From a virus (taxonomy: Duplodnaviria > Caudoviricetes): a DNA stretch of 24,066 nt. Below the pieces are notes generated by a model, which saw only the letters and a list, made by a program, of their open reading frames with translations, did not search any database and was not told the DNA's origin. Positions 10,167 through 14,390 of the stretch are shown piece after piece. Made by a program: the position numbers and the translations under genes. Where the stretch lies: the IMG/VR virus record IMGVR_UViG_3300020727_000077, positions 1 through 24,066 of that record. One strand, given 5' to 3'. Every line of letters starts with the position of its first letter. Within the stretch, counting starts at the first letter, position 1.

Positions 10167-10280
10167 TTAAATCCTTTTCGTAAGATTAAATAAGTCAAGT
10201 ACTGATACATCCATAAAACCTATTGCAAACATAATTCCAAAGAAAGCCCCTAATAAGCAAGCAAAGATAAAATCTCTCAT
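10167..10280 (-). CDS. small membrane peptide (37 aa)
   Basis: Below the track cutoff. MRDFIFACLLGAFFGIMFAIGFMDVSVLDLFNLTKRI; ATGA-coupled to the upstream gene and fills the gap. Confidence 0.65.
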   Translation of the reverse strand: MRDFIFACLLGAFFGIMFAIGFMDVSVLDLFNLTKRI

Positions 10281-10638: not shown

Positions 10639-10679
10639 TTTATTTCCTTTTTTCGTGTTATGGAATTGGTTTCCATACA

Positions 10680-10695
10680 AGTATTATATAACGAA
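10680..10695 (-). promoter_or_regulatory. early promoter motif, copy 1 (TTCGTTATATAATACT)
   Basis: 16-nt sequence identical to 13159-13174, containing a perfect TATAAT. Confidence 0.7.
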
Positions 10696-10765
10696 TCTCA
10701 TAGATTATTACGAACTAAATCAGTTTTTTAAAACTTTTTTGATTTATTTTTCTATGTGAAATGTA

Positions 10766-10841
10766 TGGTGGGGAGTAGCCACGAAAAGGTCGGTTCTTTA
10801 AGCCGAAGCAGATTATAGAGATGCCGCTCTTACTACCCCCC
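10766..10841 (-). ncRNA. tRNA-like 76-nt small RNA with ACCA end; candidate CI/C4-type antisense RNA
   Basis: GGGGGGUAGU pairs with GCUACUCCCC followed by ACCA; internal hairpins AGAG/CUCU and UCGG/CCGA; intergenic, after ssb; no canonical T-loop. Confidence 0.65.
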
Positions 10842-10849
10842 GTAGATGG

Positions 10850-11867: not shown

Positions 11868-12103
11868 TTTCTTGCTTTCATCATTGCGTCAGCAAATTGA
11901 TAAGCAGTATTGGCAATCAATTCTTGATAATTTTTATCTGCTTGAAAATTGCTAGTTTTGTAAGTGTCATCATTTTCTTCGCTTGAATGGTAATTTTCCC
12001 AAACTTTAAAAGCCAATGGCATAGCTTTAGCCGCAAAGTAATCACGCAAACCCATTCCGTTATGTTCAGGATTGAATGTAGGGTTATATGGAAATGCTTT
12101 CAT
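11864..12103 (-). CDS. conserved phage hypothetical protein
   Basis: AFP...GMGLRDYFAAKAM...AYQFADAMMKAR pattern common in lambdoid early regions. Confidence 0.8.
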   Translation of the reverse strand: MKAFPYNPTFNPEHNGMGLRDYFAAKAMPLAFKVWENYHSSEENDDTYKTSNFQADKNYQELIANTAYQFADAMMKARK

Positions 12104-13113: not shown

Positions 13114-13158
13114 TTTATTTCTCCCTTTTCATGGTAGGCTACTAAATTGTAACCTAGT

Positions 13159-13174
13159 AGTATTATATAACGAA
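13159..13174 (-). promoter_or_regulatory. early promoter motif, copy 2 (TTCGTTATATAATACT)
   Basis: Identical to 10680-10695; lies in the divergent intergenic region. Confidence 0.7.
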
Positions 13175-13182
13175 ACTAGAAA

Positions 13183-13548
13183 ATGTATACCTTTTTTATT
13201 CCATATCCACCATCCGTAAATTCCTATTGGGGTTTTAAAGGTCACAGAAGATTTCTTACACCTAAAGCTAATGAATTTAAATCGTCAGTAGCTCAAATAG
13301 TGAGCTTAAATAAAATAAATCTTGGTACTGCCAGATTGCAAATTGAAATAATTTTGTACGCAACAGATAAAAGAATTCGTGATATAGACAATTCAATAAA
13401 GTCATGCCTTGATGCACTTGTTCAAGCTAGTGCGTTTGCTGACGACTCACAAGTGGATGTTTTGACTGTAAAGCGTGGTGAAGTCATTAAAGGAGGTAAA
13501 GCAAAAATAATTTTAAAAGTATTACACTTTCCTAAAATTGATATATAA
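13183..13548 (+). CDS. rusA: RusA-family Holliday junction resolvase
   Basis: PYPPSVNSYW, DKRIRDIDNSIKSCLDAL and FADDSQV catalytic motifs. Confidence 0.92.
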   Translation: MYTFFIPYPPSVNSYWGFKGHRRFLTPKANEFKSSVAQIVSLNKINLGTARLQIEIILYATDKRIRDIDNSIKSCLDALVQASAFADDSQVDVLTVKRGEVIKGGKAKIILKVLHFPKIDI

Positions 13549-13555
13549 TAGTTCT

Positions 13556-13634
13556 TGTAGGGCTAGGTTCATTACCGAAAAATCGCTTCATCGCCGATTG
13601 CCCTACATTTTTTGTGATGCCTTTGATGAAAGGA
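13556..13634 (+). promoter_or_regulatory. structured 5' leader / attenuator of the replication initiator
   Basis: TATAAT at 13544-13549. TGTAGGGC/GCCCTACA stem enclosing two sub-hairpins, followed by T6; loops complementary to the RBS-proximal sequence. Confidence 0.65.
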
Positions 13635-13637
13635 TTT

Positions 13638-14390
13638 ATGAATTACTATCCGTTTCATATTGGGGATTATATTTCCCATACTAGCCACCTTACGGATGAG
13701 GAAGATTTGGCATATCGCAGAATGATTGATCTTTATTATCATTCCGAACAACCTTTTCCAGATGAATTTTTTGTCGCTAGGCGAGTTAAATCCAATCCAG
13801 CAGTAGCTTTAATTTTGCTACAAGAATTTTTTGAGTTACAGGATGACGGTTGGCATAACAAGCGTGCAGACGAGGAAATTGCCAAATATCAAGCCAAAGC
13901 TGATTCCGCTAGAAATGCAAACAGAATTAAATCAGAAAAGCATTCAATTCTGAAATCAACTCTGGAATCAGAACCGAATCAGCTCCTAACCAATAACCAA
14001 AAACCAATAACCAATAACCATATTAAAAACATAGACCCACCAGACGGTGTGTCTGTTGATTTATGGAAAGATTTTTTGGTTTACAGGAAACGGATGAAGT
14101 CTCCAGTAACCCCTAGAGTATTAGCCAGACTTATTAAAGAAGCTGATATAGCAAAAATGTCCTTATCCGATGTTTTAGAAACCATTATTTTTAAGGGTTG
14201 GAAATCTTTTGATGCCTCTTGGGTTGCTCAAAAACAATCAGGTAGTGCCCCACAATCTAACCAAGCATGGAGAACTAATGACAATTTAATGATTGCTAAA
14301 GCTAACGAATTGGGCTTGCATACAGTAGGACTACAACGATTCGAAATTATTAACAAGATAGACGCTACTTTAAGGAGCAGAGGATTATGA
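13638..14390 (+). CDS. DUF1376 (YdaU-like) replication initiator
   Basis: MNYYPFHIGDYISHTSHL...AYRRMIDLYY...WHNKRADEEI; C-terminal WKDFLVYRK...GWKSF. Start at ATG 13638 with AAGGA RBS (track start is GTG 13614). Confidence 0.85.
   Translation: MNYYPFHIGDYISHTSHLTDEEDLAYRRMIDLYYHSEQPFPDEFFVARRVKSNPAVALILLQEFFELQDDGWHNKRADEEIAKYQAKADSARNANRIKSEKHSILKSTLESEPNQLLTNNQKPITNNHIKNIDPPDGVSVDLWKDFLVYRKRMKSPVTPRVLARLIKEADIAKMSLSDVLETIIFKGWKSFDASWVAQKQSGSAPQSNQAWRTNDNLMIAKANELGLHTVGLQRFEIINKIDATLRSRGL
13949..14020. repeat. putative replication origin repeats inside the initiator gene
   Basis: Three imperfect ~12-nt GAAATCA/GAATCAG units (13949-13984), then five 7-nt (T/A)AACCAA units, the last truncated (13987-14020). 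Confidence 0.6.

Follow-up and report, generated by a model that had tools for sequence, protein, structure and literature searches.

Whether and how a folded RNA leader controls the translation of a phage replication initiator is the question raised by this locus, which lies in a 24 kb stretch of DNA (the window, meaning the whole sequence analysed) from a viral record that is linear and about 63% complete. Terminase-, portal- and lysis-type open reading frames (ORFs) are found in the window together with two divergent early operons, and a search of the window for tRNA and tmRNA genes found none. The early operons (13113/13183) are separated by only 69 nt, with no repressor ORF between them. 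The gene in question (13638..14390, plus strand) encodes 250 amino acids from the ATG at 13638 and matches DUF1376 in Pfam (E 4.3e-23). It likely encodes the replication initiator, a role assigned at the level of the family because PHROGs ties the product to primosomal proteins (E 2.5e-26) and to O-like replication initiation proteins (E 5.1e-18). The upstream neighbor of the leader is the rusA Holliday-junction resolvase gene (13183..13548, plus strand; in the ORF list, Pfam RusA E 7.7e-12), the stop codon of which overlaps the -10 box of a predicted sigma-70 promoter, ATTACA-17 nt-TATAAT (13521..13549, plus strand), matching the consensus at 10 of 12 positions. A transcript from this predicted promoter would start at approximately 13556-57, the first bases of stem P1 of the leader. 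A similar TATAAT-centred stretch is common to the early promoters (13156-13183, minus strand; 13528-13555, plus strand; 10673-10700, minus strand), the first two of these forming an inverted pair and the third being the similar stretch near 10680.

Every motif that an earlier note on this DNA had named is present in the window sequence at the position it gave. The TATAAT box (13544-49, plus strand) is followed on the same strand by a three-way junction (13556..13607) that corresponds to positions 1-71 of the int-alpA model of Rfam (RF02996); the junction is real, with covariation among 57 relatives. Stem P1 comprises 8 bp (13556-63/13600-07) and P2 comprises 3 bp (13566-68/13574-76). P3 had been read as 13581-85/13595-99; the junction itself stands, and the Rfam alignment and the closest relative favor a GAAAA linker (13577-81), a P3 of 4 bp (13582-85/13595-98 in the Rfam alignment) and a 1-nt J3/1. 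The P3 loop, CTTCATCGC, occupies 13586..13594, and a U6 tract (13608..13613) lies directly 3' of P1. The 60-nt element folds better than its shuffled counterparts (z -3.7, with 1 of 200 shuffles as good). The minimum-energy fold (-17.3 kcal/mol) keeps P1 and replaces P2 and P3, and the three-way junction as drawn in the earlier note (-16.2 kcal/mol) lies 1.1 kcal/mol above it; because P1 alone is retained in that fold, P2 and P3 rest on comparison. In the alignment of 57 related sequences two-sided changes occur at all four pairs of P3 and at five of the eight pairs of P1, and the covariation score was reached by 0 of 500 shuffles; the GGC/GCC and GG/CC pairs of inner P1 and P2 were fixed by the search pattern and are uninformative on covariation. 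A hammerhead ribozyme, suggested by the CGAAA 3' of P2, was dismissed, as the CUGANGA core of that ribozyme is absent.

The strict form of the search pattern matches an estimated 2,200 stored IMG/VR stretches, of which 120 further loci were taken; removal of two that could not be parsed, one that was too short and five duplicates left the 112 copies compared here. A loose pattern applied to bacterial genomes gave 120 loci, 14 of the 100 tested matching model R1, and these loose-pattern matches are mostly chance. Model R1 was built from 57 sequences, that of the window included, and it finds the RNA in 13 of 80 loci encoding initiator relatives, one of the 13 being identical to the window; in 12 of the 13 the RNA lies directly before the ATG. 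A TAnnnT box falls no more than 12 nt upstream of P1 in 69 of the 112 copies, vs. 14% of control windows, and because this -10-like box adjoins P1 in so many copies the RNA likely begins at P1. The window leader has no match among annotated phages; relatives of other leader copies are found in cultured phages, where the RNA is unannotated. In six close relatives of the initiator gene that are without the RNA (L009, L011-L014, L017), the initiator directly follows an ORF of 65-66 amino acids, which we take to resemble a Cro-type helix-turn-helix protein.

Judged from alignment and predicted pairing, the leader is a divergent relative of int-alpA. The Rfam search recommended by the earlier note gives, for a 121-nt query, a full-length alignment to positions 1-71 of RF02996 with all three stems paired and no broken pairs flagged; its score of 28.8 bits (E 1.3e-4) lies 7 bits below the gathering cut-off of 35.8 bits, and for this reason the leader is filed as a divergent variant and not as a formal member of the family. 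RF02996 was not matched at gathering level in the whole window, nor at E ≤10 in a search of the phage's own genome, and an E-value search of Rfam over 801 nt missed the junction, int-alpA being seen only with the 121-nt query. A near-identical relative of the window leader scores 32.1 bits, and among 20 loci from the strict pattern 19 match RF02996, 10 of them above the cut-off. The Rfam consensus holds a strongly conserved core of CUAG, CGAAAAG and CUG. The window shares the three-way junction with CUAG, CGAAAA and the closing UG, and differs in an A for the final G of CGAAAAG, the missing C of CUG, the 1-nt J3/1 and the 3-bp P2. Rfam lists the family as type Gene; sRNA, and it presumably originates from the Weinberg 2017 survey. 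No functional study of int-alpA was found in the literature searched, the accessible parts of which carry it only as a table entry and as gene order, and no paper was found there for the motif strings or for the accession RF02996.

The proposal of the earlier note that the leader is a loop-to-RBS pairing element controlling the initiator gains support from strong covariation between the P3 loop and the region downstream. In the window this loop can pair with site 1, GTGATG (13614..13619, plus strand; 6 bp with one G.U, -5.9 kcal/mol), and with site 2, TGATGAA (13624..13630, plus strand; 7 bp with one G.U, -6.9 kcal/mol), which touches the Shine-Dalgarno sequence AAGGA (13630..13634, plus strand; AGGA at 13631-34). 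In 87.5% of the 112 copies five or more Watson-Crick bases of the P3 loop are matched in the downstream region of the same copy, vs. 19% for swapped loops and 12% for upstream controls, and the loop finds two downstream sites of at least four bases in 87%, vs. 27% when swapped. To limit relatedness, a set of 30 loops sharing no 5-mer was compared separately: the loop matches its own site 1 at five or more bases in 21 of the 30 (swapped 3.9%) and its own site 2 in 17 (swapped 8.3%), while a coding-region control was matched in none, and 0 of 100,000 permutations reached as high a value for either site. When 25 hand-picked initiator-type leaders were aligned by sequence only, the loop-site 2 pairs held in 89% of cells, and four of the five pairs show changes on both sides; the loop-site 1 pairs held in 73% of cells in a MAFFT alignment, a weaker result because that alignment is out of register there. 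The same does not hold for the P2 loop, for which downstream pairing had also been claimed: at five or more bases it matches in 21% of copies (14% swapped) and it finds two sites in 22% (23% swapped), which is background. Two leaders (L019 and L020) keep TTCATT in P2 although their sites are of the GAC type. The TTCAT that had been noted in both hairpins is indeed present, but sharing of this kind occurs in 2 of 112 copies, namely those of the window and of its closest relative, and in 2.1% of swapped pairs; these comparisons indicate that the P2 copy is a coincidence and that the P3 loop alone pairs downstream. Among the 112 copies there are 81 distinct P3 loops, and such diversity, despite a triple constraint on each loop, suggests selection for new specificities. 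Where two leader copies occur on one contig their loops differ in five of five cases, which is not evidence in itself because loop diversity makes this expected by chance.

A hairpin that was missed in the earlier reading, P4 (13620..13633, plus strand; CCTT/AAGG or CCTTT/AAAGG), came from a site-centred fold test. Its 3' arm holds the Shine-Dalgarno sequence and its loop presents site 2; in the window its stability is -1.1 or -3.1 kcal/mol depending on the register. The statistics for P4 refer to the 94 copies that have both sites, the other 18 of the 112 being without one or both. Site 2 sits in a P4 loop in 70 of the 94, vs. 23% for shuffled sequences, with 53 distinct pairs of arms, and P4 is found in 21 of 26 unrelated loops and absent in 24 of the 94. 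In 65 of 66 cases the start of the Shine-Dalgarno sequence falls inside P4. When the loop pairs with site 2, at least one base of the Shine-Dalgarno sequence is included in 59 of 86 copies, and in 83 the pairing overlaps that sequence or falls within 1 nt of it. The two sites are anchored differently. Site 2 follows the start codon (standard deviation of the distance 3.7 nt to the ATG vs. 6.3 nt to P1). Site 1 keeps a fixed distance from P1, starting 10-16 nt 3' of its GCC in 96 of 109 copies. It stays single-stranded, outside any enclosing stem, in all but 4 of 94 (null 21% enclosed), and its pairing with the loop is flush at the loop's 3' end in 81 of 94, as would be expected of a stacked pseudoknot. 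Folding the whole downstream segment gave no signal (mean z -0.14, with 5 of 109 below -2), and P4 is revealed by the site-centred test alone.

P4 and site 2 lie beyond the Rfam model, whose 71 positions end at site 1 and include no loop-site pairing. The consensus tail, UAAGG, is complementary to the consensus loop, CCUUA, and the site-1 pairing may for that reason already be drawn in Rfam. In the accessible portion of its main text PMC5737381 does not name int-alpA, and the site-1 pairing may be described in its supplement. For a comparison beyond the training copies, the Rfam model was used to pick 11 over-cut-off int-alpA copies from five bacterial genomes, five of which copies had been seen earlier so that the check is not fully blind. 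By script both sites are found in nine of them and P4 in seven; a further two have a P4 recognizable by eye, and two are degenerate. The downstream layout of the window leader matches that of these copies.

Taken at the level of comparison, the leader is likely an RNA element that switches initiator translation by means of one loop and two targets. In the arrangement that we favor, with a probability of roughly 0.4, site 1 would be the cis pseudoknot partner of the loop and site 2 a loop-loop target whose binding shuts the RBS. Transcription would start at P1. On a read-through mRNA site 1 would emerge first and capture the mRNA's own P3 loop as a pseudoknot, leaving the weak P4 alone over the RBS, and the initiator would be translated. 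The U6 tract is predicted to be a leaky terminator giving an RNA of about 58-60 nt without site 1. Short copies ending or trimmed there would keep a free loop, accumulate, and bind site 2 of new mRNAs in trans, locking P4 and turning initiator synthesis off. Phage replication would thereby be braked in a dose-dependent and sequence-coded way, in a manner akin to that of the self-antisense RNAs c4, CI and IsrK. Antisense RNAs usually recognize hairpin loops, and trans-acting copies are favored because site 2 is presented on such a surface, because site 1 is the earlier of the two to emerge and in 74 of 109 copies matches or exceeds site 2 in strength, because termination at the U tract would yield an RNA without site 1, and because 81 loop codes in 112 copies suggest specificity groups. 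Against trans action count the fact that strong U tracts are in the minority, the 18 of 112 copies without one or both sites and the 24 of 94 without P4. The kiss between loop and site, of 5-7 bp (mean 5.6 bp), is weak for a two-molecule interaction. The energy model does not reproduce the ON state, because the local fold of the window buries the Shine-Dalgarno sequence either way (unpaired probability 0.04 with site 1 occupied or not). Other genes do not appear to form a trans regulon: 6-mer matches to the loop occur in 1.7% of own and 2.2% of swapped comparisons (p 0.80) across 1035 other RBS windows at 69 loci, and upstream targets showed no enrichment in five bins to -600. In the window, a TGATGAA complementary to the P3 loop (11877-11883, minus strand) begins 16 nt before the YqaJ start codon; the window holds 10 such sites, and this one likely reflects chance, because the family test for other RBS targets was negative.

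The covariation fits cis and trans action alike, and the main rival of the trans model is a possible, less favored switch acting purely in cis, in which the same molecule would flip between the site-1 pseudoknot (ON) and the site-2 kiss (OFF). The trigger could be folding kinetics, or a host or phage protein or a small ligand binding the conserved junction core, the CUAG, CGAAAAG and CUG of the Rfam consensus. All of the covariation and P4 data fit such a switch equally; neither site is more than about 30 nt from P1, pairings of 5-7 bp suit cis contacts, and the U tract is absent from many copies. A timed flip would however call for a consistent order of energies, and none is seen (site 1 stronger in 58 copies, site 2 in 33, the two equal in 16, of 109), nor does a cis switch give a reason for the 81 loop codes.

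The trans repression model also differs in sign from a further reading, doubtful on present comparisons, in which binding of the loop to site 2 would pry P4 open and free the Shine-Dalgarno sequence (ON) while site 1 served as an OFF decoy. In the window site-2 pairing does invade P4 and leaves the AGGA at 13631-34 free, and the local fold buries the Shine-Dalgarno sequence by default. Precedents exist, as the repZ pseudoknot opens an occluded RBS (from the part of PMC4705826 available) and IsrK activates in trans (likewise for PMC4825925). Family-wide, on the other hand, site-2 pairing covers at least two Shine-Dalgarno bases in 51 of 86 copies and overlaps or comes within 1 nt of the sequence in nearly all, and no upstream leader peptide was noted. 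The analogy to plasmid rep leaders drawn in the earlier note accordingly holds in part: pseudoknot control near the RBS fits, and the Shine-Dalgarno overlap points to repression and not to activation.

That the structure is nothing but a rusA terminator or a loop-driven attenuator, with loop complementarity incidental, is very unlikely. An 8-bp P1 followed directly by T6 does resemble a terminator, but the loop-site covariation, which contradicts this as the sole function, and P4 would be left unexplained; a promoter-like box stands right before P1 in more than half of the copies, and the U tract is missing from most. A strong U tract (at least five T in 8 nt) is present in 48 of 112 copies, the window included, and TTTT precedes site 1 in 30 of 94; a simple terminator scan of the window did not call the U6 tract. 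Part of the transcripts may still terminate at P1 and the U tract, and most copies would need processing to yield a short RNA, because so few have a strong tract. Attenuation as the earlier note envisaged it is also disfavored, since the U tract comes ahead of both sites, which would be unavailable when termination is decided.

Feedback by the encoded protein is argued against because the downstream genes are mutually unrelated. Among the 60 of 109 downstream proteins that were scanned, families include DUF1376, HNH/NUMOD4 nucleases, AntA/Rha/P22_AR_N antirepressors and an integrase-domain protein, with 36 of the 60 falling in no family; by a motif of our own, about 33 of the 109 have initiator-like N-termini. 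The leader module is portable, with no fixed tie to the DUF1376 initiator. In four loci (L104, L157, L161 and L189) int-alpA-like copies are preceded by a GGTTTTTTTATGCC tract, which presumably resembles the end of C4 RNA; the Rfam C4 model has no match in L104 or L157, where genes for Rha or P22_AR_N antirepressors lie 3' of the copies.

The earlier note had further suggested that a 76-nt RNA toggles the leader by pairing with its CGAAAA junction. No coordinates were given for this RNA, which is taken here as 10768-10843 (minus strand). The minus strand there does carry a conserved single-stranded CCUUUUCGUG that could form 6 bp with the junction, but that duplex is predicted at -6.3 kcal/mol, vs. 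-13.8 kcal/mol for the RBS of a DUF932 gene (10173-10182), and the leader is not preferred over shuffles (p 0.47 and 0.37). The two RNAs also occur apart. The leader is present in none of five loci with the 76-nt RNA, some of which are too short to reach the initiator; L204 does reach it and carries the 76-nt RNA without the leader, and all 17 initiator-leader loci with at least 3.5 kb upstream are without the 76-nt RNA according to a two-sequence profile. The proposed toggle is thus highly improbable, and the 76-nt RNA is better regarded as a candidate for a separate trans-acting anti-RBS small RNA, a protein-binding site being the alternative. It has no Rfam match, and is seen in the window, in L441-L445 and in L204. 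It forms a conserved three-way junction with stem changes across five viral loci, one of them nearly identical to the window. Its CCUUUUCGUG is complementary to ACGAAAAGG motifs at ribosome-binding sites, found one to three times per relative against a background of 3 in 1.93 Mb of other phage DNA; in the window these are the DUF932 site and a version with a wobble at 13124-13133. L444, which shares a contig with L204, has ACGAAAAGG at the RBS of the initiator itself and lacks the int-alpA leader. In L444/L204 and in L004 ACGAAAAGG stands just before the initiator ATG in place of the leader, as if initiator control had been swapped between two RNA systems in close relatives. Least likely of all is an operator at the DNA level, in which a protein would bind loop and sites as one inverted and two direct repeats: the sites are near direct repeats beside a promoter, but each has its particular stem-loop setting, similar loops are found ahead of unrelated genes, and an A-to-G change in the loop relative to the closest relative is tolerated by both unchanged sites only as G.U.

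Several characterized systems resemble the favored trans model in part. The c4 RNA of phages P1 and P7 (RF01695) and the CI RNA of phage P4 are likewise three-stem phage RNAs in the leader of their own target operon, with a variable loop that gives specificity and a target over an RBS; the accessible part of PMC5320573 describes such loop-coded specificity for c4, and available portions of the same source and of PMC4825925 place these RNAs often before antirepressor or replication genes. Unlike c4 and CI, which have two targeting loops, the leader has one, P2 being at background, and no a1b1/seqA-like target lies upstream of it. Because a promoter-like box stands directly before P1, the 5' end of the leader would not depend on RNase P. 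The Rfam C4 and c4-2 models have no match in the window or in 20 relatives. In the case of IsrK of the Salmonella prophage Gifsy-1, one promoter gives both a short, terminated RNA and a read-through mRNA, on which the short form acts in trans (PMC4825925, in the part available). This two-isoform logic is that of the trans model; IsrK, though, activates through long pairing and an upstream ORF, whereas the predicted action of the leader is repressive, through a 5-7 bp pairing with a hairpin loop. In ColIb-P9 repZ and IncB repBA the replication initiator has an occluded RBS, and a loop pairs beside it (PMC4705826, in the part available), as the leader loop would beside its initiator RBS. The leader differs from them in that its loop has a choice of two targets, and neither a leader peptide nor an antisense RNA from the opposite strand was identified; the Rfam PK-repZ and PK-repBA models have no match in the window leader.

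The int-alpA family was already catalogued, and the leader is a variant of this orphan RNA family for which translational control is well supported. The covariation gives the family a concrete testable mechanism, in which one loop is shared between an unpaired decoy and a kissing target that covers the RBS. Should the trans model be true, phages would have in this family a widespread, RNA-coded level of control over replication and superinfection, and its leaders, with no fewer than 81 natural variants of the address, would amount to a compact translational repressor that can be programmed. More tentatively, int-alpA-type leaders may form a portable, RNA-only code for phage immunity or copy control, in which the site-1 decoy would disarm a transcript's own loop and short copies would repress. 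The targets would then be initiators, antirepressors and homing nucleases bearing the same address of 5-7 letters in an RBS hairpin, and in the present phage the leader would take the place of a repressor in controlling the initiator. Within the initiator gene itself two exact 13-nt direct repeats, 21 nt apart, occur at 13987-14020 and are possibly origin iterons.
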